Positions 1,851 through 19,045 of a DNA stretch of 32,000 nt are shown here, piece after piece. The notes beneath the pieces are model-generated. The model made no database searches. It had not been told where the DNA came from and was given only the letters and a program-made list of their open reading frames with translations. Within the stretch, counting starts at the first letter, position 1. Each line of letters starts with the position of its first letter. The translations under genes and the position numbers were made by a program. This stretch comes from Aliinostoc sp. HNIBRCY26 (GTDB taxonomy: Bacteria; Cyanobacteriota; Cyanobacteriia; Cyanobacteriales; Nostocaceae): the NCBI RefSeq assembly GCF_050235535.1, contig NZ_CP189852.1, positions 6,324,585 to 6,356,584 of the forward strand, written 5' to 3'.

Positions 1851-4511
1851 CTAGGCAGGAAGCCAGGTGTGTAACCAACTATCTCGACGCTGGGCAAAGT
1901 CATACAGCAAATCTGGTCTTGTTTCCCGCAAGCATCTGAGGGCTTCGTGTTGGGACATGGCGGTGTTAGCCAGTCCTTGAAGAATTGCCATTTGGCGTTT
2001 CCAGGTGGCTGCATCTTCCACCGGTTCTACAAAGCGTGTGTGTACTTGTTGCCCAACTAACAAAGTGTCATAGGAGTGATCGTCCGAGAAAAACTCTGGT
2101 GGATGCACTGTATAAAATAGGGAATTGCGATAAGACAAAGGTGCGCGTTCTTGAAACAATGCTAGACGTTCTGCTGCACCGGAAATATCTGTGTCTTTAT
2201 TGGCTGCTTGCCAGAAGGGAGTAGAGAGGCGGCGATTAAATTTGTAGTGAATTCCCAAAAACCAGCGTAGCGCATCCCAACGGTCATTAATTTTGCGATT
2301 GAGTGTAGATTTAATCGCTTCATCGCGTCTTGAAGCTGGTAGGTTATTCATGAGAAGTTCTAATTCCAGCACAATCATATGTAGTGCTGTTGATTCTAAG
2401 GGTTCGACAAAACCATAGGAATTACCGATCGCCACTACATTACCACGCCAAAAATGCTCATGTCGTCCAGAGCGAAACTTCACTACCCAAGGTTCACTCA
2501 TCCCCGGATTTTTCGCCCGCATTTCTGCTACCGCCTGTTCTACACTACAGAATGCAGATGAAAACACATAGCCTCGATGGTCGGCATCTTCAAAGGGTAT
2601 ATTCCAACACCAACCATTATTCATGGTTTCCGCTAGGGTGTAAGGTTTGACTGTGCCGTTATGGGGAACAGTGGCAGCGATCGCCTGATCAGTGAAGAGT
2701 GTATCCTGATAACTGACGAATTTTGAGCCAAGTTTCTGCTCTAGTAGGAAGGAGCGAAAGCCAGAGCAATCAATATACAAATCGTAAGTTAGTTTCTGCC
2801 CATCGTCGGTGATTAAATGGGTGATGTTTTCGCCATCAGCAGCAAGTTGAGCATCACAAATCTGCACATCTAAATGCTCAATTCCAGATGCTAAGGCTTC
2901 TTCCTTGAGATAGCCAATGAATCGGCGATTATCTAGGTGATAAGCCCAGCGCACTAGATGTAGTAATGATAAAGGCTTACCATCACCCCGATCAAAAATA
3001 GGGGCGCGATCGCTACTCATTAACATTGCTCCCAATGACTGATTATTCAACGTGGCATCATAGAGGACTGATTCTAGCAAGCGTCCGCGCTGAAAGGGAA
3101 ATGTAAAATCGTAATCACCCGGTAGTCCCCATTGAAACTTAATGCCCAATTTCCAGGTAGGCGCGACTCGCCGATAAAAATCAACGATGTCCAACCCTAA
3201 GAAGCGGGGACTGTGGAGAAACTTCACCAGTTCAGGCGTTGTGGCTTCCCCCACACCAATCACCGGGATGGCACTCGATTCCAGCAATGTCACTTTAATA
3301 TCTGGATGGAAGGTACGAAAAGCCAAAGCTGTTAAATATCCTGCCGTTCCGCCACCTAAAATCCCCACGGTTTGGTAACTATCGGCAGATGGACGAATAT
3401 TAGCTTGCAGGGGATTCGGCCAAATTCTAGCGATTTCCTCAGCAGCAGCTGCGATCGCACTTCTTTCCAACACTCCCAACGGTGCATCTAATTGGGGTGT
3501 ACACTCCTGACATTCACCACTAGGAAATAGCCTTTTGACAATGCGATCGCCCTGACGATTAATTTTGACAACGCTAGTAGCGCGAGTTGGTGTGAAAGTA
3601 GACAAAACTGCGATCGCTTCTTCAATACAAGCTTGGGCTATGGATGGGAAGGGTGTGGGGGTGTAGGGGTGTGGGGGTGTGGGGGAAAGAATAGGGGTTG
3701 ACAGGTGCGGCAAGATATCCTTTAAGACTGAGGGAATAGCTTCCAAGGTGACGACTCGACAACCAAAACAAGCGGTTGCACCTTTAATCACTGTGGGGCC
3801 GATGAGTGCTGTGTCTGGGGAAGCCGTGACAAATAAACACGGTTTCCCAGTGGCTAAGGCTGATTGATTAACATCGAAAAGTGCTTGATATGGCACACCT
3901 TCCAAAGCACACACCACAAAGTCGAATTCTGCCAAAATTTCACAAAGTTGAGCAACAGTCACAGCGTCTAGATGATTGTGGGTTACTGTGAAAGAGCCGT
4001 TAAAAATTATCCGTTCTTGCTGGAAATTGACGAATTCCGGGGTTTTACAGGAAGCGAAATCTGTAATATTCAAAGCACGGCAGTTTTCAAACCCTGCGTC
4101 AGTAAAACTTTGAGTCAGAGTATCCAGTAATTGGTGATTGCCTAAAATAGCGATCGCCTTCTGTTTGATATCATCGGGAACGGTGGGCAATTTCCAGCCT
4201 AGATTTTGGGGTGTGACTCCAGTTGTCAGCGATTCTTCTAATATATGCAGTTGAGTTAAAGCGGCAAGAATTTCCTGTAGGTAGTGGCGATGATATTTAT
4301 TTGCTAGTTCAACATAAATTGATTCTAGGGTTCGCACGCCATCAATTAGCGTGAGTAACTCGCGGATGATATCTGGTTGAATACCTTCGAGGGCGAATAC
4401 ATCATTACCTACCCAACTACACATCTCACCCGCCGGATTGAGGAGTAAATGAGCATTGGGATTAATGCGAGGTACGGAGGGAATAGTATTTACGAACTCA
4501 GCCATTGACAT
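1851..4511 (-). CDS. Fusion protein: N-terminal RiPP leader-binding module (PqqD-like RRE + E1-like 'TOMM precursor leader peptide-binding'/cyclodehydratase-docking domain) fused to a C-terminal flavin-dependent halogenase of the tryptophan halogenase family
   Basis: This is the 886-aa track ORF. Residues ~45-95 (IIRELLTLIDGVRTLESIYVELANKYHRHYLQEILAALTQLHILEE) follow the PqqD/RRE winged-helix pattern. Residues ~110-370 lack a GxGxxG motif and contain FDVNQSALATGKPCLFVTASPDTALIGPTVIKGATACFGC plus a later CQEC; this CxxC...CxxC pairing is typical of E1-like docking domains (TIGR03882-like). From ~aa 383 the sequence reads GILGGGTAGY (FAD GxGxxG), VIGVGEATTP, WKLGIKFQWG (candidate catalytic Lys block), GWCWNIPF (WxWxIP) and GNSYGFVEPLESTA. 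It overlaps the upstream halogenase gene by 22 nt, or 16 nt if Met3 is the start. Confidence 0.8.
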   Translation of the reverse strand: MSMAEFVNTIPSVPRINPNAHLLLNPAGEMCSWVGNDVFALEGIQPDIIRELLTLIDGVRTLESIYVELANKYHRHYLQEILAALTQLHILEESLTTGVTPQNLGWKLPTVPDDIKQKAIAILGNHQLLDTLTQSFTDAGFENCRALNITDFASCKTPEFVNFQQERIIFNGSFTVTHNHLDAVTVAQLCEILAEFDFVVCALEGVPYQALFDVNQSALATGKPCLFVTASPDTALIGPTVIKGATACFGCRVVTLEAIPSVLKDILPHLSTPILSPTPPHPYTPTPFPSIAQACIEEAIAVLSTFTPTRATSVVKINRQGDRIVKRLFPSGECQECTPQLDAPLGVLERSAIAAAAEEIARIWPNPLQANIRPSADSYQTVGILGGGTAGYLTALAFRTFHPDIKVTLLESSAIPVIGVGEATTPELVKFLHSPRFLGLDIVDFYRRVAPTWKLGIKFQWGLPGDYDFTFPFQRGRLLESVLYDATLNNQSLGAMLMSSDRAPIFDRGDGKPLSLLHLVRWAYHLDNRRFIGYLKEEALASGIEHLDVQICDAQLAADGENITHLITDDGQKLTYDLYIDCSGFRSFLLEQKLGSKFVSYQDTLFTDQAIAATVPHNGTVKPYTLAETMNNGWCWNIPFEDADHRGYVFSSAFCSVEQAVAEMRAKNPGMSEPWVVKFRSGRHEHFWRGNVVAIGNSYGFVEPLESTALHMIVLELELLMNNLPASRRDEAIKSTLNRKINDRWDALRWFLGIHYKFNRRLSTPFWQAANKDTDISGAAERLALFQERAPLSYRNSLFYTVHPPEFFSDDHSYDTLLVGQQVHTRFVEPVEDAATWKRQMAILQGLANTAMSQHEALRCLRETRPDLLYDFAQRRDSWLHTWLPA
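3651..3685. repeat. Tandem octamer repeat (coding strand CCCCCACA/CCCCTACA, about 4 units) embedded in frame in the fusion gene
   Basis: The plus strand reads gggtgtgggg gtgtaggggt gtgggggtgt ggggg, with 'tgt' recurring every 8 nt (3654, 3662, 3670, 3678). It encodes the PTPPHPYTPTPFP insert. Near-identical copies lie at 9581-9600 (in the LanB-like gene) and 12559-12588 (intergenic). Confidence 0.8.
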
Positions 4512-5992
4512 TTTCTTTCCTTCACAACCTGAATTGCCTCATGAATTGATAAGGCGTTGTCACAATTTTTGATGAAATAGTTTTTGACTTGTCGCCAATA
4601 ATCTAAATCTAAGGTGTCGTGTTTGTTTTGATACTTTGTTACCACCCGTTGACCCATCAGCAGATTCAGATAACCGTTATATCCAAACACACTATTAGGA
4701 CGAAGGAGAATTTGGCCTATGGGTGATGGGCCATTGTTTTGAAAAAAGTCTACGATCGCGGCTGCTTCGCCAATATCAGTGTATTGTTGGCAGTGTTGCC
4801 AAAACTCCGATTCTACATAGTGATTGAACTTAAAATGAATCGATAAAAAGTCACGAATATCATCCCATTTTTGAGCGATCGCCCGATTTGCCAAATTAAT
4901 TAACGCTGGGGTGGGTCGTTGGTCTGAATCAATTAACACATCGCATACACATTTAATGGTTTCGCCAATCATGTGTAATCCCGTTGATTCTAAGGGTTCT
5001 ACAAAACCTGACGCATTGCCAACTGCGACCACATTCTTCACCCAAAATCGTTGATGTCGTCCTGATTTAAACCTAATCTGACTAACATCGTCACTCATCA
5101 GGGGATTTTTCTGTTTCATCTCTTGCAGTGCTGCATCATCACTGATAAAAGCAGATGAATAGACATAGCCCCGATTGACACGATCCTGTAAATCAATTTG
5201 CCAACACCATCCCGCCTGCATAGTTTCGGCGGTGGTGAAGGGATAAATTGGATCATCTCGCATCCATGTGCCTGTGACAGCAGAATCACAGAATAAGCTA
5301 GTAGCAAAACTGCAAAAAGGTTCTTGGAGAATTTCTCCAAGCAACGTAGAACGAAACCCAGAACAATCAATAAACAAATCACCAGTTACACTTTTCCCAT
5401 TTTGCAAGCGTAGTTGGTGAATATCGCCATTTTCAGCCACTGTAATATCTACAACAGGCTGATCAATAATCTGAATGCCAAGTTCTAAAGCGCGCTTTTC
5501 TAGATATGCCACAAAACTAGAATTTTCGATATGGTAGCCAAAGCGTTCGTCAATAACAAACTCTCCATCTTTGCGACGGAAGCAAGGCGATTTATACTGC
5601 TCCATCAACAGAGAGTAAATACTAGAGTCTGTAGTAGAGTCTAGACAATAATAAGCCGTGCTTTTTTGCAAAACAGCCAGTTTATCCGCCAAATGAGTCA
5701 CAAAAGGATAGTTGAAGTGAGACTGGCTAGGATCTCCCCAAATAAACTTAATTCCCAGTTTCCAAACAGGTTGGGTTTCCTCGTAAAATTGCTCACGATT
5801 GAATCCCAAATACTGATGGAGAAACCAAGGTATCCAGGCGGTAGTTGCTTCACCAACTCCAATAATGGGAATAGTAGTAGAATGAACTACCACCACATTT
5901 AAAAATGGCATTTTGACCTTGAGAGCTAAGGCAGAGAGAAACCCTGCACTACCTCCGCCGAAGATTACAACATTATGTATTATCTTTTCCAC
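4490..5992 (-). CDS. Flavin-dependent halogenase, tryptophan halogenase family (stand-alone)
   Basis: This is the 500-aa track ORF, and it uses a GTG start (plus-strand 'cac' at 5990-5992). Motifs seen are VIFGGGSAGF (GxGxxG), IIGVGEATT, WKLGIKFIWG, GWCWQIDL (a WxWxID variant of WxWxIP) and GNASGFVEPLESTG. It is a paralog of the C-terminal half of the downstream fusion protein. Confidence 0.85.
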   Translation of the reverse strand: MEKIIHNVVIFGGGSAGFLSALALKVKMPFLNVVVVHSTTIPIIGVGEATTAWIPWFLHQYLGFNREQFYEETQPVWKLGIKFIWGDPSQSHFNYPFVTHLADKLAVLQKSTAYYCLDSTTDSSIYSLLMEQYKSPCFRRKDGEFVIDERFGYHIENSSFVAYLEKRALELGIQIIDQPVVDITVAENGDIHQLRLQNGKSVTGDLFIDCSGFRSTLLGEILQEPFCSFATSLFCDSAVTGTWMRDDPIYPFTTAETMQAGWCWQIDLQDRVNRGYVYSSAFISDDAALQEMKQKNPLMSDDVSQIRFKSGRHQRFWVKNVVAVGNASGFVEPLESTGLHMIGETIKCVCDVLIDSDQRPTPALINLANRAIAQKWDDIRDFLSIHFKFNHYVESEFWQHCQQYTDIGEAAAIVDFFQNNGPSPIGQILLRPNSVFGYNGYLNLLMGQRVVTKYQNKHDTLDLDYWRQVKNYFIKNCDNALSIHEAIQVVKERKCQWLSS

Positions 5993-6355
5993 ACGAATAT
6001 CTCAAAAATATCGACTTATTTATCAAAAAATATTAAGAAAAGTAGACGATTTTGGATGTCTATTTTCTTTATGTCATATGACATTTGGGAACAGAGCAAA
6101 ACTAATTAATATAGCACAAATAAATATTTTGGCTATAAGTTAATTTCACTTAACAGGACGTTGCGCTGCGTTTAAACACAACTTAAGAACTTAAAATTCA
6201 TTTACAAACGCTATGTAATTAAATTTAGTAATTGTTTGTCACCAATCTTATCAATAGATTCTAGAATTTCTTCTTAAATTACTTAAAGATTTGTACTGTT
6301 CATGAGACAAATCAGATAGGATTTGCTGACAGTATTAGATACGGAAATAACTATA
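5993..6355. promoter_or_regulatory. Divergent promoter/control region between the halogenase operon (minus) and the MBL-LanB-MBL operon (plus)
   Basis: This is a ~360-bp AT-rich, stop-rich spacer between two divergently oriented gene sets. It contains a perfect 14-bp palindrome, ATGTCATATGACAT, at 6071-6084. I could not assign -10/-35 elements with confidence. Confidence 0.4.
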
Positions 6356-8113
6356 ATGCGTGTCACTATCTGTGGCCATGCTGCTTTATATATCGAAACT
6401 ATTGATCAACGCATCTTGCTTGATCCATGCTTTGCTGATGAACTTGTGGGCGGGACACTCACCTACTATCCAGGTCGGGTATTTAACTTAGATAAACTGC
6501 CCGACCTGACGGCTATAGTGGTGACACACGGACACTTTGATCACTTTCATCGTCCAACACTAGAACAATTGCCCCGTGAACTACCTGTGATTACAGCCGA
6601 TGAGCCGGAACTGTTAGCACAGTTACAGCAAATGGGATTTGCCGATGTGAGAGTCTGTCAACCTTGGCAAGCGATCGCCCTCGGACAAACTCACTTACTC
6701 CCCACGCCTTCCGACCATGAAGAACCAGAATTTGGGTTAGTGGTGCGGGATGTGACAGGGACATTTTGGCACATGGCAGACGCAGAAGTTACGGTAGAAA
6801 TTGGCGATCGCCTCACCCAAGCCTATGGTGCAATTGATCTGATTTCCACTAAGTATCAGCCAGTAGTCCGGGCTAGCATGGGCTATCAGCATGGCATGGG
6901 GGCAACGTTTGACCGAGAAGGGGTAGTGAGTTGGTTAGAAGCAGCTTGTGCCTGTAACCCGGCTTTAATCTTCCCCTACGCTTCCGGGCTGTGTTTTAAT
7001 GGTCGCCATGCCTGGTTTAATCGTTATGCCTTCCCCTTAAGTGCAGAAGAAACAGTGCGCTTGTTGCAACGTCGCCTCGGCTCTCCAGAACGAGCCACAA
7101 CAGTGCGTCCTGGCGATGTGATTGAACTTCAGGCTGGTCAGCATCCCCAGCGACATGAACAAGCAGCCGGTTTCGTCAAAGCCAAGCCTTCTCAGGTATT
7201 GCGCTGGCAACCTGTCGATATCAGCACCCTCACGGGACTATCAACACCAGAAGCACGGCGGACTCTACAACGACAACTAGAGGCGTTATTACTGACAGGA
7301 AAATTTGTCTCATGGCTGCAAAGCATAGTCAAACATACTGATACCATTTGGGCTAAGTTTCCCTCTGAGCAGGTTGTTTGGCAATTGGTAGTTCATGCTG
7401 GGGATGGCGAACTGTTAAACTATGCCATTGATTTTCGCTCTCAAGATTTGGCTGTGGTGTCCGGTGAACATCCAGAAGCCAACTTCTTTACCCACATTGC
7501 CGGACAAGCTTTGGCAGAAGTGATGACGGGCGAAAAACCAGGGCTAATTTTTTGGCTAGCTGGGGAGGTGCGGAGTTATGAAAAGGTGATTTGTCTCCGC
7601 AATGGTCGTTTTGCCGCTCCACAGTGGCCGGATATACCTGAAGATTTCCCCTCCGACCCCCTAACTTACTACCTCCGTCATTTTGGGGCGGGAAACATCC
7701 CTACTGAGCAGCTAGAGACAGCAGCGAATTCTCTTGGAAGTCCCGATGATATTCAGATTTTGACGCGTCTGGGGGAAAACGCAGGAGTCATCAGCAAAAA
7801 AGTTCTCTTGGCTTATTTGGCGGTGAAAGAAGCAGAACGTTTAGGGCTGAATATTTCTGATGCGGAAATTCAAGCCATGTCTGACTCGTTTCGAGAGCAG
7901 TTTAATTTGCAAGATAGCCAAGCTACAGAACAATGGTTAAAGGAAGCAGGATTAAGTCTAGAAGCATACTCGGCCGTGATGCGAGATTTCACTGCCGTCC
8001 TGAAGTTAGAACAGCATTACACTAGCGTTATTGAGCCGTGGCTGGCCAATCATCGCCGTGTGGCTACAGCTCGTTATGCGCGATCGCATCCAGACTCCAC
8101 AGACAATGAATAA
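6356..8113 (+). CDS. MBL-fold metallo-hydrolase (Lactamase_B_2/3-like) with a ~330-aa C-terminal extension of unknown function
   Basis: The track ORF 6323-8113 begins at a TTG. I prefer the ATG at 6356 (MRVTICGHAALYIETIDQRILLDPCF...), which is a typical MBL N-terminus. The HxHxDH-type motif is VVTHGHFDHFH. The C-terminal tail (...VLLAYLAVKEAERLGLNISDAEIQAMSDSFREQFNLQDSQATEQWLKEAGLSLEAYSAVMRDF...) resembles SurA-N/PpiD-like chaperone helices, but this is a weak impression by eye. The stop overlaps the next gene's start within ATGAATAA (8106-8113). Confidence 0.8.
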   Translation: MRVTICGHAALYIETIDQRILLDPCFADELVGGTLTYYPGRVFNLDKLPDLTAIVVTHGHFDHFHRPTLEQLPRELPVITADEPELLAQLQQMGFADVRVCQPWQAIALGQTHLLPTPSDHEEPEFGLVVRDVTGTFWHMADAEVTVEIGDRLTQAYGAIDLISTKYQPVVRASMGYQHGMGATFDREGVVSWLEAACACNPALIFPYASGLCFNGRHAWFNRYAFPLSAEETVRLLQRRLGSPERATTVRPGDVIELQAGQHPQRHEQAAGFVKAKPSQVLRWQPVDISTLTGLSTPEARRTLQRQLEALLLTGKFVSWLQSIVKHTDTIWAKFPSEQVVWQLVVHAGDGELLNYAIDFRSQDLAVVSGEHPEANFFTHIAGQALAEVMTGEKPGLIFWLAGEVRSYEKVICLRNGRFAAPQWPDIPEDFPSDPLTYYLRHFGAGNIPTEQLETAANSLGSPDDIQILTRLGENAGVISKKVLLAYLAVKEAERLGLNISDAEIQAMSDSFREQFNLQDSQATEQWLKEAGLSLEAYSAVMRDFTAVLKLEQHYTSVIEPWLANHRRVATARYARSHPDSTDNE

Positions 8114-10454
8114 TCGGCAAAGATTTGAGTTTGCCCCGGCTGCTATCTTACGGGCTGCGGCTTGGCCTATCGAAACTATTCAAGGTTTCGGAAATCCAGA
8201 ACTCGCCCAATTGGCACTCGCAGCCAGCCGCAGTCAGGATGCTCACACCTGGAAAGAATACACAGATGCCTATCAACAGGTACACGCACAAGAGCGTGAA
8301 AGACTGTGGCAGATTACCGCAGGCGATTCCTGGTTTATGAAAGCATTGCTGTTGTCCAATCCATCCCTCGTCACCGAGGTAAAACGTGGGCTAACACTCC
8401 AAGAAGGGAAACGCACCAAAAAAATTCGCCATCTAGAAACAGCACTGTACCGTTTTCTCGCACGGGCGGCGGGACGCACCACACCCTATGGTTTATGGGC
8501 TGGTGTGGGTTTAGTCGAGTTGGGCAAGACAGCACAGCAAGCATCAACAAACGCCAAGTATACATTTACACCTGATTTGCGTCCTTGGCAAAGGATATTG
8601 CGAGCGATCGCCCACCGTACAGAATACCGTCAAGCAGCAACTTGGCGAATCAATCCTACCTTAAAGCGGCAAGCAGACGGCTCTTGGCGTTTTTGGGGGA
8701 GAAAGCCTGGTGGGTTAGTCGAACAGCGTGAAATTGATTCCCAAGAAATCGTAGATGTTCTTTTGGAGGAACTAATAAAATTAGAACTGGGAACATTAGA
8801 TCAACTGTCCACAACAGTAGCAGTTTCACCCCGATGGCACTATGCAGCTAACATACAAGAGATTCTGCGTATTTTCATTGATGGGGGTGTGCTTGTAGGC
8901 GGACTAGACCTACCCTATCAATTTGCAAATCCCTGGCAAGCCTTAGTTCTAGTAGCAGACAACCTGATTGAGCCAGATCTCCATCTTTGGCACAAAGCTA
9001 TTCACCAGATCCAGCAACTGAGCGATACTCTAGCGGCGCAGCTTGAGGTCATGTCTGTAGATGCACTAGGAGAGTATTTACAACAAGCCAAGACATATAT
9101 TCAGGAACTCGCCCAGGGTCTTAGCGTTGAACTCATCCAGCTACCCGATCCAGTGCTGCACTGTGATTTGGAGCTACCATTGCGGATTACCCTTGATCAG
9201 ACACAGCAAAATATTTTACTGCAAACACTCCGAGACTATGAAGACTGCTGGATTCAAGGCATTAGTCCAGCCTCAGCCTTGCGGATAGCATTCCGTGAGC
9301 GAATGCAACAAGAATTTGCAATGGGTGTAGCTCTTTGTGATCTAAAATCCAGCTTAACTGCCGAAATGACCAAAGCTCATAGTCATCCCGCAGTTGTCAC
9401 CCGCATAGCAGAGTGGGAACGCTGTTTATCTCACGGCACAGAGGAATTTATTCTAGAAACTAATAACAATGGGTTAAATTCCCCTCTTTCTACAGCCCCT
9501 TTTGGTTGCTTGTTTGTCGGTTTATTTGCAGGAGGCAACCCCGATGCAACTTTTACTACCAAAGATAAAATCAACTGTTTCCCCCACACCCCTAAACCCT
9601 TAGAATTTTTAGTTCATGGCATTGGTGATGAACCCGTGCGAATCTTTGCCCGGTTTAGCGAATTACTCAAGTGTGATCATGTACTGCATTCTTGGTTTCA
9701 AACCAGACTGGAGGATTTGGCAACCCAACATCACATTCAGGTGGCAGAACTACAAACTCCCTTTGAGCATAACCCTAATGTCTTGGCTCGTCCTAATTTC
9801 GGGATTGTGCCGATTGAGTTGTGGGGCGCAAGTGCAGAGACTGCATCCCTAGCTGGTGCCAAAATTTTTCTTGATGCTAAAACACAGCTATCTTTCTTAA
9901 AACTGTCTGCCTTTACCAATCCAGTAGCAGTATTTTGGTTTTCCTCAGCTGCGATCGCCAATTTTGATCCTATATGTGAACAGTTACTTTGGACTACCTT
10001 TCAGGATAACCCGATGGCAGTTTTTCGTGCTGCTACACAGCCCATGCCAGTCGAACTCAGCACACCCCGCTTCACCCCCCGTGTACGACTACCAAAAAAC
10101 GCTATTGTACGTCCCCGTCGTACTGTTTTGAGTGGGCAAACCTTAACGGAACTTGCCCAAATGCCTGCAATAGAGCGTTTTGCTAAGTGGCAACAATTAG
10201 CGGCTGAATATGGCTGGCCGATGCTGCTAAATCTGCAAATTGCGGGACAATATTCACTGTTGATACATCGGGATAGCCCCCTAGCCATAGAGTCCTTTTT
10301 CAAAAAAAACTTGTCAGCACAAACTCCCTGGCTAATTATCGAAGAGTTAGTCAATCAACCTTGGCTAGTTGACTCCCAAGGACAACATTACATAGCAGAA
10401 CTAGCCATACCGTTTGCCCGCAGTGAACACGGCTGGGGGAAATTAAAAATCTAA
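8106..10454 (+). CDS. Lantibiotic dehydratase N-terminal (LanB glutamylation-domain) family protein lacking an elimination domain; candidate PEARL (peptide aminoacyl-tRNA ligase) or split LanB
   Basis: The track ORF is 8031-10454. I place the start at ATG 8106 (Met26, MNNRQRFEFAPAAILRAAAWP...), which gives 782 aa. The hallmark Lant_dehydr_N block is present: KKIRHLETALYRFLARAAGRTTPYGLWAGVGLVELG. The length and the C-terminal region (RFTPRVRLPKNAIVRPRRTVL...LLNLQIAGQYSLLIHRDSPLAIESF) fit the roughly 800-aa N-terminal domain alone. I recognise no SpaB_C/elimination-like sequence in this ORF or elsewhere in the window. Confidence 0.8.
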   Translation: MNNRQRFEFAPAAILRAAAWPIETIQGFGNPELAQLALAASRSQDAHTWKEYTDAYQQVHAQERERLWQITAGDSWFMKALLLSNPSLVTEVKRGLTLQEGKRTKKIRHLETALYRFLARAAGRTTPYGLWAGVGLVELGKTAQQASTNAKYTFTPDLRPWQRILRAIAHRTEYRQAATWRINPTLKRQADGSWRFWGRKPGGLVEQREIDSQEIVDVLLEELIKLELGTLDQLSTTVAVSPRWHYAANIQEILRIFIDGGVLVGGLDLPYQFANPWQALVLVADNLIEPDLHLWHKAIHQIQQLSDTLAAQLEVMSVDALGEYLQQAKTYIQELAQGLSVELIQLPDPVLHCDLELPLRITLDQTQQNILLQTLRDYEDCWIQGISPASALRIAFRERMQQEFAMGVALCDLKSSLTAEMTKAHSHPAVVTRIAEWERCLSHGTEEFILETNNNGLNSPLSTAPFGCLFVGLFAGGNPDATFTTKDKINCFPHTPKPLEFLVHGIGDEPVRIFARFSELLKCDHVLHSWFQTRLEDLATQHHIQVAELQTPFEHNPNVLARPNFGIVPIELWGASAETASLAGAKIFLDAKTQLSFLKLSAFTNPVAVFWFSSAAIANFDPICEQLLWTTFQDNPMAVFRAATQPMPVELSTPRFTPRVRLPKNAIVRPRRTVLSGQTLTELAQMPAIERFAKWQQLAAEYGWPMLLNLQIAGQYSLLIHRDSPLAIESFFKKNLSAQTPWLIIEELVNQPWLVDSQGQHYIAELAIPFARSEHGWGKLKI

Positions 10455-10460
10455 CTTAAA

Positions 10461-10498
10461 AGTGATGAGTGCTGAGTGCTGAGTGGGGAGTGATGAGT
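10461..10498. repeat. STRR-like tandem heptamer array (AGTGNTG x5)
   Basis: The units are agtgatg agtgctg agtgctg agtgggg agtgatg agt. The array sits directly after the LanB-like stop codon (10452-10454). Confidence 0.8.
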
Positions 10499-10522
10499 CA
10501 ATTAGTGTTTGCTTCCTATGCT

Positions 10523-10553
10523 CCCCCATCCCCAATCCCCAATCCCCAATCCC
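10523..10553. repeat. STRR1-type tandem heptamer array (CCCCAAT, about 4 units)
   Basis: The units are cccccat ccccaat ccccaat ccccaat ccc. CCCCAAT heptamers are the classic short tandemly repeated repetitive (STRR) sequence of heterocystous cyanobacteria. Confidence 0.85.
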
Positions 10554-10570
10554 TCTTCCCTCTTTCATCT

Positions 10571-12064
10571 ATGACAATTCGCAGATTAAGTAACAAAATT
10601 AGATTCCAACTGATTTATCAGGATGAAACCAAATTTGGCAGTGCTGTCACTGGACAATGCGACACGACTATCCGGCGTTACTGCAAAAGCATCATGGCAC
10701 ACCGTCAACAATATGGTCTGGCAGATGTGGTGGCGCATTCACGGGAATTACTGGCAGCAACCATGATTCCTGGTGGACTGGCAGATTTGTATGCAAGTCC
10801 TGGGGTACTGCGAGAAGATTGGCTTTATCCCGATAGTCAAGCTGTTCAACCCGTTGTATTGCAATTGGAACACAATATTGGTGAAAGTATCGCCACCCTT
10901 AAACTATCGCCCCATCTCTTATCTGATTTAGCTTCATATTTAGGTGAATGGCAACAAGGAAGTCATGCTCCGACTACAACCGTGGCTCGTGAGTTATGGG
11001 ATGTGTTAAATGATTATGGCGCACTGGTTCAAGAGGCTATGCCTGCAACGTCTCTATCAAGTCATGCTACCTTTGTCGGTCACTCAACTCTACAATTTAG
11101 TGATGGCAACTCTAGTATTTTGTTTGATCCATTTGTGTTGCCCAAGTCTGAGGTTTATCCACCCAACTATCAACCCCTCAGCCTAGAGGAACTAGGACAA
11201 CCTGATGCCGTATTTATCACCCATTCTCATCCTGATCATTTTGATTTAGGCACATTGCTGAGACTTGGTGCTAACACAGCAATCTTTGTGCCTGAAGTGC
11301 AGCGAGAATCTGTATTGGCAATTGACATGGCATTGCGGCTGCGTCAGTTGGGGTTTGATAATGTTCACACCCTGAGCTGGTTTGAAGAAAGGCAAATTGG
11401 CGGGATCAGAGTTATTGCCTTGCCATTTTACGGTGAACAGGCTACCGTCGGGGAAGTCCTGCACCCAGAGATTCGTAATCAGGGTAACACCTATCTGGTT
11501 GAGTATTGCGATCGCCGTGTGGCACTAACCGCCGATTCTGGGCGTGACTATCTGGGAAATGTCAAAGAACTAGCAGATACAGCCAAAGAGCGTTATGGTT
11601 CGCTTGATATTCTCTTCGGTGGCTATCGTGGTTTTGGACTCTATCCAATTCAGTATCTATTTTCCTCAGTTGCCCGGTATTTGACTTTTGTACCTGAAAA
11701 GATTTGGCAAGTCCGGCAAAAAATGATGTGCGATGCCGATGATGTCATTGATGTCGCTGAAATCTGGAATGCTAAACGGCTTGTACCGTACTCCGATGGG
11801 GGTGCGCCTTGGTTTTGGCAACGTGGTCTTGGCCCTTGTCTAGATGGATCACAACCACACATTATGGCAGTTGATCCTACCCCAGACCATGTTTGTCAGG
11901 TAGCCAGTCAGCGTTCAGGGACTCGCAAAGATGGAGCGATCGCATCTCCCGTATCAATTTGTCTGCTGCGCCCTGGGGATGCTCTCATGTTTTCACAAGC
12001 AGATATTTCAGTTAAAAATCAGTCTTGGCCTTATGTAAATTCTTCAGGCTCTAAAACTAGGTAA
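10571..12064 (+). CDS. MBL-fold metallo-hydrolase (second copy) with a ~170-aa N-terminal extension of unknown function
   Basis: The track ORF is 10469-12064. Its first 34 codons are encoded by the two STRR arrays, so I prefer ATG 10571 (MTIRRLSNKIRFQ...), giving 497 aa. The MBL core reads ATFVGHSTLQFSDGNSSILFDPF...PDAVFITHSHPDHFD...VALTADSG. The N-terminal region (...TVARELWDVLNDYGALVQE) has no assignable family by eye. Confidence 0.75.
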   Translation: MTIRRLSNKIRFQLIYQDETKFGSAVTGQCDTTIRRYCKSIMAHRQQYGLADVVAHSRELLAATMIPGGLADLYASPGVLREDWLYPDSQAVQPVVLQLEHNIGESIATLKLSPHLLSDLASYLGEWQQGSHAPTTTVARELWDVLNDYGALVQEAMPATSLSSHATFVGHSTLQFSDGNSSILFDPFVLPKSEVYPPNYQPLSLEELGQPDAVFITHSHPDHFDLGTLLRLGANTAIFVPEVQRESVLAIDMALRLRQLGFDNVHTLSWFEERQIGGIRVIALPFYGEQATVGEVLHPEIRNQGNTYLVEYCDRRVALTADSGRDYLGNVKELADTAKERYGSLDILFGGYRGFGLYPIQYLFSSVARYLTFVPEKIWQVRQKMMCDADDVIDVAEIWNAKRLVPYSDGGAPWFWQRGLGPCLDGSQPHIMAVDPTPDHVCQVASQRSGTRKDGAIASPVSICLLRPGDALMFSQADISVKNQSWPYVNSSGSKTR

Positions 12065-12133: not shown

Positions 12134-12367
12134 TTACCATTTTGCTTGTAAGTAAAAACCACGAATTCCACCACCAGCAGTAGTTTGAGGTGCGCCTCTA
12201 TTGGGTGCAATAAATGGTTGATTAGTTTTTAGATGGGGCATTTTTAGCACAGGTGTTAACTCAAATTGCGGCTCTGGATTCGCTTTTGTGGATACACCAG
12301 AAATAACAGATAATCCCAAAAAAATAAAAATTGATGTCACACTTAAAATTTGATTTAGAGTATTCAT
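12134..12367 (-). CDS. Short secreted-looking protein (77 aa) carrying only the DUF928 N-terminal motif; it may be a DUF928 5' gene fragment
   Basis: The track ORF is 12134-12415. I prefer the start at ATG 12367-12365 (MNTLNQILSVTSIFIFLGLSVISGVSTKA..., signal-peptide-like). The block QPFIAPNRGAPQTTAGGGIRG matches QKFIPPNRQAPRTTAGGGSRG of the DUF928 protein at 19175-19909 in 16 of 21 positions. The ORF then ends at ...FYLQAKW-stop, so the rest of the DUF928 domain is missing. Confidence 0.45.
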   Translation of the reverse strand: MNTLNQILSVTSIFIFLGLSVISGVSTKANPEPQFELTPVLKMPHLKTNQPFIAPNRGAPQTTAGGGIRGFYLQAKW

Positions 12368-12649
12368 ATATTTTCTTGCTATTAATAAACACAACACTCT
12401 TTTGCAGAGTTGCAATTTCTTGCCCCCTACATAAGCGCATATTTTGTGTAGTTGAAAATCTCTATATATTTAAATTCACCCGATAAGAAAGGTTTTACGC
12501 AAACAATAACTACCCTCTATACTTTCGGCAATAAAATATGGGCATGGGAGCAAAATTTCTCCTACACCCCCACACCCTTACACCATTTCACGAAAAATAT
12601 GATACAGATGTAAATCCTGAAAACCTTGCTGCATCTGAGTTTTTTAATT

Positions 12650-12721
12650 GCGGTAGCGTCTCGGAGAGAAGCGGGACGTACCTGGAGGGGAAGCAAGCTA
12701 CGCGTTAGCGTTTCGGAGAGA
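12650..12721. repeat. Member(s) of a dispersed short GC-rich repeat family, with a local 16-nt direct repeat
   Basis: The direct repeat is tagcgtCtcggagaga (12654-12669) and tagcgtTtcggagaga (12706-12721). It flanks agcgggacgtacctggaggggaagcaagctacgcgt. The segment gtacctggaggggaagcaagctacgcgttagcgtttc (12678-12714) resembles the reverse complement of 25186-25222 (gtacccctccggggaagcaagctacgcgcagcgtctc). The decamer gcggtagcgt (12650) recurs inverted at about 14086-14095. The right-hand copy forms the last codons of the TVP38 gene. Confidence 0.6.
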
Positions 12722-13364
12722 GTTTAAATAACAACGGTGACACCGATAACAATACCAAAAAAACTGACGCGAGTATAAAAGAGGACGCGTCGCTTCCTTC
12801 TAAAGCGGTTTTTCCGGAAGCACCCAACCAAGTATAAGCAATCGTCCCTGGAATGACTCCAATTAAGGTTCCAAGGGTATAAATCTTCAGGTTGATTGCG
12901 GTTAGTGCCAATAAAAAGTTAATAATATTAAACGGAGCAATCGGGGCAAAGCGCAGAGATAGAACTAAGAAAAAGGGATTGCGTTCAAGTGCTTGATGCC
13001 ATTTTTGCAGCAGTTTATGTTGACCGAATTTTGCTACTGCCCAATCTCGAAATAGGTATCGAGTCAGACAAAATGCTCCTACTGCTCCCAATGTTGCGCC
13101 TAATGTAGACCAAAGGCTTCCCCATCCCAAACCAAAAACTACACCTCCAGTTAAGGTATGAATTGTTATCGGTAAACCTAAGACTGTAACCAATACGTAG
13201 GTGAAGATAAATAAGGGAACAGCCCAAATACCTAGTCTTTGCAACCAAAATGAGAGAATCTCTTGATTGAGCAAATTCCGTAAGGGAGTTGTGAAAAAGA
13301 GTAAGATTGCACTCAGCAGTAGTAATATCTGGAAATTTTTGCGGAGTAGACGCTTTAATCTCAC
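12705..13364 (-). CDS. TVP38/TMEM64 (DedA-related, SNARE-associated) family membrane protein
   Basis: This is the 219-aa track ORF with a GTG start (13362-13364). It is multi-pass hydrophobic and carries the family-typical block LPITIHTLTGGVVFGLGWGSLWSTLGATLGAVGAFCLTRYLFRDW. It starts 4 nt downstream of the previous gene's stop, so the two are probably co-transcribed. Confidence 0.75.
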   Translation of the reverse strand: MRLKRLLRKNFQILLLLSAILLFFTTPLRNLLNQEILSFWLQRLGIWAVPLFIFTYVLVTVLGLPITIHTLTGGVVFGLGWGSLWSTLGATLGAVGAFCLTRYLFRDWAVAKFGQHKLLQKWHQALERNPFFLVLSLRFAPIAPFNIINFLLALTAINLKIYTLGTLIGVIPGTIAYTWLGASGKTALEGSDASSFILASVFLVLLSVSPLLFKLSPKR

Positions 13365-13368
13365 GGAA

Positions 13369-13971
13369 CTACACTCCGTCCTGACTGGTTGACGAGTGCA
13401 TTAATGTTTTACGTAAATCAACTGCGTGAAAGATACTCAAAATATCACATTGCCAAGTTGGTAACAACAGCGTCATAGCAATTTCTTCTAAACTATTGAG
13501 CCAACAAAGCGCGATCGCAAACCAAAGGGTGTTTACGTAACCAAAACCAAATAGCCCCACAGTCGCCGCAAGTAGGGCTAATCCCCATGCTTTAGCAGTG
13601 TAGGTATGGAAACTAGGGAATTTTTGAAACTTGATTAAACTAATTGCGAATAATATGAGTTGGATAGCGATCGCAGACAATAAAGGTACTCGAAAATCGA
13701 TGATTACTTGGGGATATACTAACCAGGTACTAATAGCCACACACAAATACAAACAAATATCAGCCCAGCTATCTGCTTGACGAAGTTGGGTTGTACTAAC
13801 CTTTAAGCGACGGGCAATAATACCATCAAAAATGTCTGAAAGTACGGCAATAATGTAACCAATGATGAACCAAAAACTGGTTTTATGGTCTAAAGCATCG
13901 AAAACTAGTAAAGGAGCTAGAGCGAAGCGCATCCCCACTAAAATACTCGGAAGATGTGACAGTTTGATCAT
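13369..13971 (-). CDS. CDP-alcohol phosphatidyltransferase family protein
   Basis: This is the 200-aa track ORF, a polytopic membrane protein. SDIFDGIIARRLKVSTTQLRQADSWADI fits the D-x2-D-G-x2-A-R...D-x3-D signature, although the central Gly is not obvious. Confidence 0.7.
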   Translation of the reverse strand: MIKLSHLPSILVGMRFALAPLLVFDALDHKTSFWFIIGYIIAVLSDIFDGIIARRLKVSTTQLRQADSWADICLYLCVAISTWLVYPQVIIDFRVPLLSAIAIQLILFAISLIKFQKFPSFHTYTAKAWGLALLAATVGLFGFGYVNTLWFAIALCWLNSLEEIAMTLLLPTWQCDILSIFHAVDLRKTLMHSSTSQDGV

Positions 13972-14107: not shown

Positions 14108-16747
14108 CTAAGCCATCTGTCGCGCCATCAAATTCGCAAATAACCCTTGTTGTGAAACTAATTCCTCAAACTTACCTTGCTGGACAACTCGACCGGCTTC
14201 AATCACATAAATTCTGTCAGCATTGCGGATGGTACTGAGGCGATGGGCAATTACTATACGCGTGACTCCTAAATTATCTAAGCTGTTGCTGACTATAGCT
14301 TGGGTACGATTATCTAAAGCACTGGTGGCTTCATCAAAAATCAGAATTTTGGGTTTCAATACCAAAGCACGGGCTATTAATAGTCTCTGTCTTTGTCCAC
14401 CAGACAGGTTTGTACCACCCTCGGAAATGACTGTGTGCATTTCCATTGGCATTAATTGAATATCATCCGCCAACCCGGCCATGCGTGCAGCTTCCCAAGC
14501 TTCATCCATTGTCACCAATGCACCGCTAGAAATATTCTCAAAAATAGAAGCACTATTAATCCGCCCATTTTGCAGGACTACACCAATCTGTCGGCGCACT
14601 GCTGATATATCTAATCCTGATAAATCTTGACCATCGTAGTAAATTGTCCCGTCTTTTGGTGTTTCAAACCCCAACAACATCCTCATAATTGTCGATTTAC
14701 CACTGCCAGAAGGCCCTACTAAGGCAATAAACTCTCTTGCTTCAGCCTCAATGGTGACATCATCTAAATTCAGGGGGCCGTCTTCTCGATAACGGAATGT
14801 TACATGATCAATCTTGACTTTACCCGTTAACCGTCCAGGGTCGCTTTTGTTGAGATCAATTTCTGGTTGTGCTTGAAAGATGGGTTTGGCTCGTTCCCAA
14901 AAAATGCTGATGTCTAATATGCTAACTATGGTGTTACTCAGTTGTGTTGCACCCAAGATAAAGATAGCGAAGGCTGAGTTAAACGCTAAAAATGTCCCTG
15001 TGGATAATCCGGCACTGCCTTGAGACGGGGCTTGTGTAATTAATAGCACTGCCAGCCAAAAGATGATGATGGAAGTGATTGTTGGCATGACAGTATTAAA
15101 TATAGCTAAGATGTCTTCTACTACTTCTGTACTTAGTTTGAGTTTGAGTTGCTGACTATACTTTTTTGCCCAGTAAGCAAAGGCGCGGTCTTCGGCACTG
15201 CTGACACGAAGTTTAGACACGCCTGCAACCATCTGGACGGTAAAACCAAATATCTCTCCTTCTATTTCTTCTAAAACACGCAATTTCTGGCGGGTAAGTA
15301 TACCGGAGACAGTGGTAAAGATGATTGTCACCAGTGCTACTGCTAACACAACTAAAGCCAAACTAGAACTGTAGACAAACAACAGTCCCAAATTCAGCAG
15401 GGAGAAGAAACTAGTAAAGATGGTGCGTAATACTGTGTCGCCAAGTTTCTGCCGAATTTGAGTGATAGCGGAAACACGAGATTGTAAATCCCCTATGGAA
15501 TACTGCCGAAAGAAAGATACCCGCAAATTCAATAATCTATCCCACAGGGCAGCTTGGGAATCTAAACTACCTTTACTGTCTAGTCGCAGTCCGGCAAACC
15601 CTTGGGCAGTTTGAAAAACTACTGTGCCGAAAGTGGCTGCTAACAGACCTAAGCTGATTTGAAATAACAAGCCTCGGTCTGCATCAGGAATGACTGCATC
15701 GATGAGAATGGCGGTGGCTAAGGGCGTTAACATCCCTAGTAATGCGGCGATTGTTCCTGTCAGGAGGATGATGATCAGTTCTCGTATCTGTCCCTTGAAA
15801 GCAAACTTTAACACATCGATCGCAGTTAAATTTTGATCAGGTAGGGAACGATAAAACACATAGGCAAAGGGAGCTAGTTGTTGAGCCGTATAATCATTGA
15901 CAGGAATACGGGTATGATTTTCTGGGTCAAAAATTTCGTATTTTCTGGTTCCTGCTGGTAAAATCGCTACTGGGCGATTATCTTTGTGCGTATATGCCAG
16001 TAGAGGACTAGTATCCTTTAGCCACCATTGATTGTTGAGTAATACTCGCCGCATCCGAAGGCGAGAGGCACGGGCGATCGCTTCTAGGGGTTCTTTAATC
16101 CGATTCATCTCTTCGGAACGCGCCGGAGGCAAAATCTTCATGCCTAATGCCCTACCTACTGCACCTGCGGCAATTAACAGGGGTGTCCCAGTTTGTAACA
16201 GTTCTGCTTGTTTGGGTTTGAGAACCGATGCCAAATTCCCTAAAGCACCAACTTTGACTTGATGGTTAAATTGTTCTCGTGCTTGGAATTGCTCTAATTT
16301 AGTGGCTAACTCCTCTTGTTCTATCTGCACGAGAATTTGGCAAAAATCGCTGTGTAGTTGATTGAGAGTTAGTTGGATGCTATCCCAATTATTCACCTCA
16401 TCAGGATGGGAGAATATAGGAGGAATGACACAGCGATCGCCTACACAACCACAGATATTTTTCCCCCAAGTCTGCACTAACTCCAGCCACCCTTGAGACT
16501 GATCAGTTAATTGCCACAGTACAGTCTCTTCCATTGCTACGGCTAAAATTTTATGGGTCTGAGTGGCTATGCCAAACAATGCTTCCCCTGGATTGACAGC
16601 AAATAGATAACGGCGTACTCCGTCAATTCCTTCGTGAATGGGAATCGCAAACAGCGCGATCGCACCTGATTTCATCTGCCAAACGGTGTGCGGATCGTCT
16701 AATAACAAGGACTGATTGCTGGTGAGCAATAACTGGGAATCATTCAT
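14108..16747 (-). CDS. NHLP/Nif11-type bacteriocin export ABC transporter permease/ATPase subunit (no peptidase domain; cNMP-binding-like N-terminal domain)
   Basis: This is the 879-aa track ORF. About 330 aa precede the TMD, including a beta-barrel-like VWQMKSGAIALFAI...RRYLFAVNPGEALFGI stretch. A six-TM ABC exporter region follows. The ATPase motifs are Walker A GPSGSGKST, signature LSGGQRQR and Walker B ILIFDEATSALD. The architecture matches what I remember of the TIGR03797-type partner in the NHLP export trio. Confidence 0.85.
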   Translation of the reverse strand: MNDSQLLLTSNQSLLLDDPHTVWQMKSGAIALFAIPIHEGIDGVRRYLFAVNPGEALFGIATQTHKILAVAMEETVLWQLTDQSQGWLELVQTWGKNICGCVGDRCVIPPIFSHPDEVNNWDSIQLTLNQLHSDFCQILVQIEQEELATKLEQFQAREQFNHQVKVGALGNLASVLKPKQAELLQTGTPLLIAAGAVGRALGMKILPPARSEEMNRIKEPLEAIARASRLRMRRVLLNNQWWLKDTSPLLAYTHKDNRPVAILPAGTRKYEIFDPENHTRIPVNDYTAQQLAPFAYVFYRSLPDQNLTAIDVLKFAFKGQIRELIIILLTGTIAALLGMLTPLATAILIDAVIPDADRGLLFQISLGLLAATFGTVVFQTAQGFAGLRLDSKGSLDSQAALWDRLLNLRVSFFRQYSIGDLQSRVSAITQIRQKLGDTVLRTIFTSFFSLLNLGLLFVYSSSLALVVLAVALVTIIFTTVSGILTRQKLRVLEEIEGEIFGFTVQMVAGVSKLRVSSAEDRAFAYWAKKYSQQLKLKLSTEVVEDILAIFNTVMPTITSIIIFWLAVLLITQAPSQGSAGLSTGTFLAFNSAFAIFILGATQLSNTIVSILDISIFWERAKPIFQAQPEIDLNKSDPGRLTGKVKIDHVTFRYREDGPLNLDDVTIEAEAREFIALVGPSGSGKSTIMRMLLGFETPKDGTIYYDGQDLSGLDISAVRRQIGVVLQNGRINSASIFENISSGALVTMDEAWEAARMAGLADDIQLMPMEMHTVISEGGTNLSGGQRQRLLIARALVLKPKILIFDEATSALDNRTQAIVSNSLDNLGVTRIVIAHRLSTIRNADRIYVIEAGRVVQQGKFEELVSQQGLFANLMARQMA

Positions 16748-18996: not shown

Positions 18997-19045
18997 CAAT
19001 TCGCAATTCGCAATTCGCAATTCGCAATTTGCAATTTGCAATTCG
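18997..19045. repeat. STRR-type tandem heptamer array (CAATTCG/CAATTTG x7)
   Basis: The units are caattcg x4, caatttg x2, caattcg x1. The array begins 11 nt upstream of the cyclase start codon (18986), in the DUF928-cyclase spacer. The same heptamer recurs at 31308-31371. Confidence 0.85.

Follow-up and report, generated by a model that had tools for sequence, protein, structure and literature searches.

The divergent five-gene cassette at positions 1851-12064 of the 32,000-nucleotide stretch of Aliinostoc sp. HNIBRCY26 analysed here (the whole stretch is referred to below as the window) raises the question of what its LanB-like protein does. It could act as a peptide aminoacyl-tRNA ligase (PEARL), appending amino acids from aminoacyl-tRNA to a scaffold peptide, as the original prediction of a "pearlin"-like halogenation cassette had it, or it could be one half of a dehydratase in the maturation of a peptide that is made by the ribosome and then modified post-translationally (RiPP). 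We consider it likely that the five genes form the central tailoring block of a RiPP cluster of about 30 kb that continues leftward beyond the window, and that the pathway proceeds broadly as proposed below. The five open reading frames (ORFs), both gene overlaps and the divergent spacer (363 bp) are as originally described, and the domains assigned to them, namely two Trp halogenases, a LanB N-terminal protein without an elimination domain and two proteins of the metallo-beta-lactamase (MBL) fold, were recovered with Pfam. The cassette and its parts are as follows:

1851-4511, minus strand: HalFus, a RiPP recognition element (RRE) and E1-like module fused to a MibH-like Trp halogenase (Pfam, PDB profiles)
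3372-4511, minus strand: docking module of HalFus, residues 1-380
1851-3371, minus strand: halogenase part of HalFus, residues 381-886
4490-5992, minus strand: Hal2, a stand-alone MibH-like flavin-dependent Trp halogenase (Pfam, PDB match)
5993-6355: AT-rich divergent intergenic region, 363 bp, between the halogenase operon and the MBL1 operon
6356-8113, plus strand: MBL1, an MBL-fold domain (residues 1-280), a middle region and a C-terminal TIGR04500-like domain
7748-8080, plus strand: the TIGR04500-like adapter domain, about 110 aa, at the C-terminus of MBL1
8106-10454, plus strand: LanB-N, a LanB glutamylation-domain protein (Lant_dehydr_N, AlphaFold2 and Foldseek)
10571-12064, plus strand: MBL2, an N-terminal domain of about 165 aa and a CmlA-like MBL-fold domain (Pfam, PDB profiles)

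The stop of Hal2 lies in a 22-nt overlap with the ATG of the HalFus gene, and the MBL1 and LanB-N genes overlap in ATGAATAA (8106-8113), LanB-N being, to judge from this junction, translationally coupled to MBL1. Promoter-like matches in the divergent spacer 5993-6355 showed no excess over shuffled expectation, the terminator scan gave no matches above chance and the Rfam scan gave none.

A precursor family beyond the window edge

No precursor, Lant_dehydr_C protein, YcaO protein or TfuA remnant was found in the window, even at relaxed thresholds. In the same genome, cluster look-ups identified a cupin-like protein (XTB91467), a Lant_dehydr_C protein (XTB91468) and a YcaO protein (XTB91470); XTB91467-XTB91470 lie 6-9 accession numbers before LanB-N, which is 100% identical to WP_427159571/XTB91476. 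The precursor is XTB91469, a 121-aa peptide in which a Nif11-like leader ends in ...AGG and is followed, after this double-glycine (GG) site, by the core LASSDTPKSTIMCCW of 15 aa, holding two adjacent Ser and two Cys. We infer that XTB91471 is TfuA, and, since LanB-N is XTB91476 and three window genes precede it, that the order in HNIBRCY26 is cupin, Lant_dehydr_C, precursor, YcaO, two further coding sequences, HalFus, Hal2, MBL1 and LanB-N. The absence of YcaO, SpaB_C and a protease, on which the original prediction had built, is correct for positions 1851-12064 and incorrect for the system, which has XTB91470, XTB91468 and a C39 peptidase at 22679-24952; the claim arose from the coordinates chosen and from the window edge.

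The same left half is found contiguous in relatives. In Cylindrospermum PCC 7417 and Nostoc DedSLP03 the genes for cupin, Lant_dehydr_C, precursor, YcaO and a TfuA fusion of 558-575 aa are followed by HalFus and Hal2, and in Nostoc CENA543 the same left half adjoins the exporter block. In the closest relative, CMAA1605 (L014), TfuA (L014:208-1860) ends 15 bp from the HalFus stop. Positions 1-1850 of the window, in contrast, are AT-rich (28-33% GC) and ORF-poor, without an Rfam match or similarity to any relative, and look as if DNA had been inserted or exchanged where the two halves of the cluster meet, at the position that TfuA holds in CMAA1605.

For the wider comparison, a pattern scan with one genome per species gave 22 loci, on which the window proteins were mapped by tblastn; loci are given L-numbers below. 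About 15 Nostocales genomes have all five genes with order and orientation unchanged, and a few others have them with one or two decayed or unassembled, so that the expected co-occurrence outside HNIBRCY26 was borne out; chance adjacency was considered and is ruled out by this synteny. The core MBL1-LanBN-MBL2 extends to an uncultured cyanobacterium (L018), Chamaesiphon (L021) and a gammaproteobacterial metagenome-assembled genome (L022), in each case accompanied by Lant_dehydr_C and a precursor ending in T[IV]MC[CPA]W. Sorangium (L023) encodes HalFus, MBL1, LanB-N, YcaO, TfuA and the precursor, together with a fragment resembling MBL2 where the contig ends. The metagenomic contig L031 codes for LanB-N, Lant_dehydr_C, a protein of the MBL1 type and an exporter. 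In the actinobacterium Fodinibacter luteus (L032) the cluster is rearranged and has one protein of the MBL2 type:

949-15263 of L032: cupin, RRE-E1-halogenase, MBL2-like protein, TauD, YcaO, TfuA with adapter domain
949-15263 of L032, further genes: LanB-N, Lant_dehydr_C, precursor, ThiS, ThiF-rhodanese

Signs of decay or rearrangement are seen in several relatives: Trichormus (L003) lacks Hal2, L008 has it in fragments, CMAA1605 has LanB-N in two pieces, an IS605-type TnpB-like ORF lies between Lant_dehydr_C and precursor in L016, and insertions of 0.7-8 kb separate LanB-N from MBL2 in several Nostoc metagenome-assembled genomes (L006/L009/L019).

A protein search with the Nostoc peptide defined a precursor family of 117-121 aa in cassette-bearing Nostocales, sharing the Nif11-like N-terminal region, the motif VNIRSI.SVNGIKARP and the cleavage site ELESVAGG. 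Precursor ORFs in relatives were found by a C-terminal regular expression; an all-against-all search of small ORFs among the loci returned only shadow frames inside genes. The signature T-[IVC]-M-C-[CPA] is invariant, its Thr being present in 18/18 precursors collected, and, with one exception among the precursors found, a C-terminal Trp comes after it. The SS pair of the HNIBRCY26 core, unlike T-x-M-C, is not conserved across the family. The original proposal of a RiPP tailoring cassette is supported. Representative precursor ends are:

Nostoc: ...GDTIMCCW
Uncultured cyanobacterium, L018: ...VSTVMCPW
Chamaesiphon, L021: ...FSTVMCPW
Gammaproteobacterial genome, L022: ...NTIMCAW
Sorangium: ...GTIMCCW
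Fodinibacter: ...PTVMCCW (APTVMCCW), with a non-Nif11 leader
Metagenomic contig L031: internal ...STCMCPG, with 17 residues after the motif

LanB-N, its elimination partner and the YcaO-TfuA pair

LanB-N matches the Pfam family Lant_dehydr_N (E 2e-20) over the first 281 of 649 profile positions and has no Lant_dehydr_C domain in Pfam. With its AlphaFold2 (AF2) model, computed from 28 homologues (pLDDT, the predicted local distance difference test, 88.9; pTM, the predicted template-modelling score, 0.90), Foldseek retrieved only LanB glutamylation domains, among them those of NisB, MadB, MibB, TbtB and GodF (E 1e-26 to 2e-21, template-modelling score 0.62-0.69); the identity to characterised LanBs is 12-16%. 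The model indicates a complete glutamylation-domain fold. Such a fold cannot by itself separate LanBs from PEARLs, but genomic context can, as PEARLs are defined by the absence of an elimination partner (PMC11962472). The same paper gives the ATP-grasp-like ATP-binding residues of PEARLs in BhaB/TglB numbering.

A dedicated Lant_dehydr_C protein is encoded by most well-covered relatives. It stands alone in L018 (E 2e-16) and L021 (E 2e-15), was located by tblastn in L016, L019, L022 and L001, and lies immediately 3' of LanB-N, overlapping or at most 2 bases apart, in L031, L032 and the JGI P0034 contig. The HNIBRCY26 protein, XTB91468, is named "thiopeptide-type bacteriocin biosynthesis protein" and lies about eight genes from LanB-N; the partner scores 71 bits against TIGR03891 ("thiopeptide-type bacteriocin biosynthesis", cut-off 48). 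Separate glutamylation and elimination proteins are thus found in one cluster, with adjacency in HNIBRCY26 read from accession order. Since the partner is conserved and directly follows LanB-N in three distant relatives, LanB-N is most likely the glutamylation half of a split LanB dehydratase.

This arrangement resembles TbtB/TbtC and GodF/GodG, which likewise consist of a stand-alone glutamylation protein of the same fold (Foldseek E 2e-23 for TbtB, 2e-21 for GodF) and a separate Lant_dehydr_C protein acting on a leader-bearing ribosomal Ser/Thr substrate. LanB-N is 13-16% identical to TbtB and GodF, its elimination partner in HNIBRCY26 is about eight genes away, and, unlike the split LanBs of thiopeptide, goadsporin and pyritide pathways, it is flanked by, and apparently translationally coupled to, MBL-fold proteins. 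These pathways also differ in having an azole-forming cyclodehydratase/dehydrogenase set and a pyridine synthase, neither of which belongs to the cluster described here.

A PEARL function, in which LanB-N would append an amino acid from aminoacyl-tRNA to a scaffold, the product would be a halogenated small molecule and the MBL proteins would be releasing hydrolases, was suggested by real features of the cassette. LanB-N has no elimination domain fused to it and none is encoded within 1851-12064, its Pfam match is limited to those first 281 of 649 positions, the protein is very divergent at 12-16% identity, and Trp-halogenase-family enzymes accompany PEARLs in ammosamide-type pathways. As in the cassette, PEARLs (TglB, BhaB/AmmB; LanB_C type) have no fused elimination domain and a Trp-halogenase-family enzyme nearby. 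They lack, however, the cognate elimination protein that is present in this genome and most well-covered relatives, and use a reusable scaffold where the cluster encodes a peptide with a GG leader site, along with a C39 exporter dedicated to it, features that are typical of peptides for export and untypical of catalytic scaffolds. The precursor gene already supplies the C-terminal Trp, which makes an appending step from aminoacyl-tRNA unnecessary; the invariant T-x-M-C fits dehydration and thiol addition, and the halogenases are nearest to the peptide halogenase MibH. A PEARL role for LanB-N is accordingly very unlikely, and the full PEARL pathway equally so; this part of the original prediction did not survive the partner gene and the precursor-encoded Trp.

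The split dehydratase would act in a pathway that also contains a YcaO-TfuA pair. The best-scoring type for YcaO is that of McrA-thioamidation (208 bits; SagD type, 128 bits), TfuA scores 200 bits against its model, and TfuA is always the next gene after YcaO, the adjacent pair lying beside the precursor in relatives. YcaO is likely to catalyse thioamidation, because of the McrA-type match, the constant adjacency of TfuA and the ThiS and ThiF-rhodanese genes of Fodinibacter, which plausibly form a sulfur relay. Adjacent YcaO and TfuA likewise mark thioamitides, thiovarsolins and thioamidated thiopeptides; in contrast to thioamitides, the cluster has neither an HFCD decarboxylase nor a kinase/lyase pair, and its TfuA, unlike those of known YcaO-TfuA systems, is extended at the C-terminus by about 340 aa, within which lies a TIGR04500-like domain.

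The assignment of YcaO bears on a thiopeptide- or pyritide-like reading of the same genes, according to which the Lant_dehydr_C homologue would be a [4+2] enzyme building a pyridine macrocycle from two dehydroalanines and the E1-like module would serve a cyclodehydrating YcaO. The match of the partner to TIGR03891 (71 bits, cut-off 48), the joint presence of an E1-like/RRE module and YcaO, and a core with two adjacent Ser and two Cys could be accommodated in this way. One Lant_dehydr_C gene was found per locus, however, which would leave none for elimination if it were a pyridine synthase, and it is T-x-M-C and not the SS pair that is conserved. YcaO groups with the TfuA-dependent thioamidating YcaOs and is always beside TfuA, an azoline dehydrogenase is absent, and family members without YcaO (L018, L021, L022 and L031) still keep the core enzymes. 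We regard a pyridine-forming pathway as highly improbable and a split dehydratase acting alongside thioamidation as the better account.

Halogenases, MBL-fold proteins and their accessory domains

Both halogenases match Pfam Trp_halogenase (PF04820; HalFus residues 382-834, E 1e-111; Hal2, E 3e-111), and the nearest PDB entry for both domains is MibH (5UAO; E 8e-145 for the HalFus part and 1e-95 for Hal2), with 487 and 325 bits, while the runners-up, at about 220 and 210 bits, are all free-Trp halogenases. The defining motifs of flavin-dependent Trp halogenases are GxGxxG, a catalytic Lys (FKLG-type) and WxWxIP. HalFus retains all of them (GGGTAG, WKLGIKF, GWCWNIP); Hal2 (GGGSAG, WKLGIKF, GWCWQID) deviates at the Pro, which is replaced by Asp (WxWxID). 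The similarity to MibH supports the peptide-acting type predicted for both enzymes, and the conserved C-terminal Trp of the precursor is consistent with the predicted halogenation of a peptide Trp. Besides MibH of the NAI-107 pathway, the closest relative of both domains, a precedent is given by SrpI, which depends on the leader when it halogenates the C-terminal Trp of a long-leader NHLP/Nif11-type precursor (PMC12615548) and resembles HalFus and Hal2 in their likely target. Compared with MibH and SrpI, HalFus adds the 380-aa RRE and E1-like N-terminus, and two halogenases occur in one pathway.

The 380-aa N-terminus of HalFus begins with 95 winged-helix-like residues, followed by a Rossmann-like region, and has an invariant GP...CxxC and a second invariant CxxC. 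Its profile gives weak matches in the PDB to LynD (both sub-domains, E 0.004), MccB, PaaA and TruD (E 0.004-0.5), and it matches TIGR03882 with an E-value of 0.002. A single-sequence AF2 model had a pLDDT of 37 and was discarded. An exhaustive phmmer search with the N-terminus returned 77 relatives, whereas a word-indexed search gave a single match. Among 51 proteins scanned for domains (the window protein and 50 phmmer relatives), Trp_halogenase is present in 28, YcaO in 14, ThiF in 6 and PqqD in 2. On the strength of these profile matches and of the YcaO-, ThiF- and PqqD-bearing relatives, the originally proposed fusion of an RRE and E1-like module to a halogenase holds as a sequence-based assignment, the module appearing homologous to the corresponding part of fused cyclodehydratases. 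The fusion is common to at least 27 clusters at 50% identity, which points to a recurrent architecture; literature searches found no characterised example of an RRE-halogenase fusion. The E1-like module more probably serves the halogenase than YcaO.

By tblastn mapping of the window proteins, halogenases are absent from L018, L021, L022 and L031, and a Trp prenyltransferase fragment or gene is found instead in halogenase-less loci or a related JGI contig. The halogenases are thus an accessory part of the cluster.

The MBL1 and MBL2 proteins, which belong to the family-wide core, match Pfam Lactamase_B_2/B_3, and both keep HxHxDH (HGHFDH in MBL1). The MBL2 profile is closest in the PDB to CmlA (E 1.9e-14) and 8A90, a non-heme diiron monooxygenase (E 1.7e-13); that of MBL1 matches 8A90 (E 9e-12), NAPE-PLD (3e-8) and CmlA (3e-7). 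The motifs of MBL2 are HSHPDH, ALPFYGEQ and TADSG, and its invariant residues H218, H220, D222, H223, E289 and D322 align with CmlA motifs, E289 with the Glu of "GEH" and D322 with the Asp of "AADS", residues that are diiron ligands in CmlA. Where hydrolytic MBL proteins have the His of the third motif, MBL2 has Glu. MBL1 keeps HGHFDH, D/E120 and D142, and the NAPE-PLD His motif "PSQH" is matched in the alignment by "PS[DE]H" of MBL1. CmlA and 8A90, which are beta-hydroxylases of nonribosomal peptide synthetase pathways, are thus the best solved homologues of both proteins; MBL2 keeps HxHxDH and the aligned Glu/Asp, and CmlA, like MBL2, has an extra N-terminal domain. The substrate here would be a ribosomal peptide and not a carrier-protein-tethered amino acid, and the C-terminal architecture of MBL1 differs.

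The same cluster could be read with MBL1 and MBL2 as hydrolases that trim the peptide, or with one of them as a zinc-dependent thioether cyclase in place of LanC, which is absent. Pfam and NCBIfam place both proteins in hydrolase-named families, MBL1 matches NAPE-PLD (E 3e-8) through the motif noted above, and the L031 precursor has 17 residues after its motif that would need removal. Against this, the best solved relatives of both are CmlA-type diiron monooxygenases, and the Glu of MBL2 at the third-motif His aligns with that of CmlA. Weighing these alignments, we lean slightly towards oxygenases for the pair and hold hydrolytic or cyclase roles to be rather doubtful; taken singly, MBL1 is ambiguous between oxygenase and hydrolase on its sequence.

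The TIGR04500-like domain at the C-terminus of MBL1 is found in several other contexts. In L022 it forms an ORF of its own (9621-9980) just upstream of LanB-N. It is the C-terminus of TfuA, just upstream of LanB-N, in Fodinibacter L032 (9682-9987) and the C-terminus of TfuA in Sorangium L023 (12793-13149), and it is recognised in the Nostoc TfuA fusions (E 5e-7 to 3e-3) by a hidden Markov model (HMM) of the domain. All 8 aligned copies match TIGR04500 ("PpiC-related putative peptide maturation system protein", best E 2e-11). By hhalign the likeness between the MBL1 and TfuA C-termini is weak (P 0.009), but it is confirmed by the domain HMM; hhalign among the extra domains of MBL1, MBL2, TfuA and HalFus gave no signal beyond this pair, and a PDB search with the domain gave nothing meaningful. 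Whenever it is not carried by TfuA, the domain lies immediately upstream of LanB-N. It appears to be a separable module, mobile between MBL1, TfuA and a stand-alone ORF, and would serve in docking of the peptide or of a partner.

Export, neighbouring genes and the proposed pathway

To the right of the cassette, the window contains genes for export and associated functions, and a small ORF:

14108-16747, minus strand: NHLP/Nif11-type bacteriocin export ABC transporter, permease/ATPase (TIGR03797, 995 bits, cut-off 709)
16740-18986, minus strand: CHASE2 adenylate/guanylate cyclase (Pfam)
19175-19909, minus strand: DUF928 protein (Pfam)
20122-21162, plus strand: cyclic-nucleotide-binding transport-associated protein (TIGR03896, 303 bits, above cut-off)
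21205-22644, plus strand: HlyD-type adaptor (TIGR03794, 359 bits, above cut-off)
22679-24952, plus strand: C39 peptidase/ABC exporter (TIGR03796, 1165 bits, above cut-off; Peptidase_C39, E 5e-35)
12134-12415, minus strand: 93-aa ORF with a signal-peptide-like start and the motif PNRGAPQTTAGGGIRG

The ABC transporter at 14108-16747 is syntenic with the cassette in L003, L004 and L014, and the exporter block with CHASE2 cyclase and DUF928 genes lies beside the cupin, Lant_dehydr_C and precursor genes in L027 and L029. Both a GG site in the precursor and a TIGR03794/03796/03797 exporter set are present. The 93-aa ORF is conserved beside MBL2 in L003 and L014, and its motif PNRGAPQTTAGGGIRG recurs near the N-terminus of the DUF928 protein 19175-19909 (16/26 identical); it could represent a shortened DUF928 paralogue or else a small peptide for secretion. 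The genes at 12705-13971 (minus strand, lying between MBL2 and the exporter block and shared only with CMAA1605; they encode a membrane protein of the VTT/DedA family and a CDP-alcohol phosphatidyltransferase) and at 25278-31296 (a PhoX-like/DUF4114 protein, a cytochrome P450 and a TPR-M48 peptidase after the C39 exporter) are probably unrelated to the cluster, since they are not syntenic with it in other genomes. Short tandem repeats occupy the LanB-N/MBL2 spacer (10461-10553; a 14-mer x2.7 and TCCCCAA x4.6) and the spacer between the CHASE2 cyclase and DUF928 genes (18997-19047; CAATTCG x7.3); such short intergenic repeats are typical cyanobacterial heptamer repeats.

In the proposed pathway, LanB-N would glutamylate the conserved Thr, and possibly other Ser/Thr, from Glu-tRNA, and the Lant_dehydr_C protein would eliminate glutamate to give dehydrobutyrine. 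The Cys three residues downstream would then probably add to the dehydrobutyrine, forming a small methyllanthionine ring; the invariant Thr and the Cys at this spacing fit dehydration followed by thiol addition. MBL1 and MBL2, more likely CmlA-like metal-dependent oxygenases than hydrolases, would introduce hydroxyl groups or other oxidations into the core, one or more backbone thioamides would come from the YcaO-TfuA pair just beyond the window edge, and HalFus and Hal2 would halogenate the C-terminal Trp, HalFus docking on the leader via its RRE/E1-like module and the TIGR04500-like domain on MBL1 and TfuA acting as a second peptide- or partner-docking module. The C39 peptidase/ABC exporter would finally cut after GG and export the product.

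Several points weigh against this reconstruction. The precursor scores 26.5 bits against the Nif11 model TIGR03798, below the cut-off of 32.3, and its leader is therefore described as Nif11-like and not as a scored member. Adjacency on the left side of HNIBRCY26 is drawn from consecutive accession numbers and from relatives, and one extra gene or insertion lies between TfuA and HalFus in this genome, since the 1850 bp left of HalFus are AT-rich, non-coding and without likeness to any relative. The Lant_dehydr_C family also takes in [4+2] pyridine synthases, a LanC-like cyclase is absent, and for MBL1 the alignment with NAPE-PLD, a di-zinc hydrolase, is nearly as good. The chemistry is deduced throughout: where dehydration occurs, the thioether, the position of the thioamide, which halogen is added and where, and what the MBL proteins catalyse.

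Parts of the system have been drawn before. Malit et al. 2021 list Cylindrospermum PCC 7417 among TfuA clusters and show in their Fig. S13, for a Nostoc family, a cyclase, DUF928, a cyclic-nucleotide (cNMP) protein, NHLP secretion and exporter genes, followed by cupin, thiopeptide-type protein, precursor, YcaO, TfuA and a further cupin (PMC8120280). This TfuA-YcaO family corresponds to the left half described here, including its cupin/JmjC hydroxylases, and omits the halogenases, LanB-N and MBL genes. The claim of an undescribed combination therefore fails for the left half and the exporter block and stands for the right half, which is not drawn there, and for the product, of which no description was found. 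Literature searches, within the library covered, found no characterisation of the product, the core motif or the enzyme combination, nor of TfuA with a halogenase, CmlA-like enzymes in RiPPs or PDB 8A90.

The system combines known kinds of components: a split LanB, a YcaO-TfuA pair, a peptide halogenase and a Nif11-type precursor. It also illustrates how a window edge can make a conventional split-dehydratase pathway resemble a PEARL system. Leader-guided peptide halogenases and thioamidating enzymes are wanted as biocatalysts, and the cluster is a good genome-mining target. If the reconstruction is true, three of its features are without a characterised precedent that we could find, namely CmlA-like enzymes of the MBL fold that have a ribosomal peptide as substrate, a Trp halogenase with its own RRE/E1-like leader-docking module and a TIGR04500-like adapter domain common to an MBL enzyme and TfuA, and the cluster would represent an uncharacterised RiPP family over four phyla with a short, strictly conserved core motif. 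A further suggestion, which we put forward tentatively and at less than even odds, is that the quartet of MBL1, LanB-N, Lant_dehydr_C and MBL2 builds a new structure from T-x-M-C, which in the Nostocales would be modified further by thioamidation and by a leader-docked halogenase fusion. Two CmlA-like metallo-oxygenases, a type that to our knowledge has not yet been reported in RiPP pathways, might for example produce an oxidatively elaborated thioether or heterocycle on the dehydrobutyrine/cysteine pair. If so, the quartet would mark a new class of RiPPs with members in Cyanobacteria, Myxococcota, Gammaproteobacteria and Actinobacteria.

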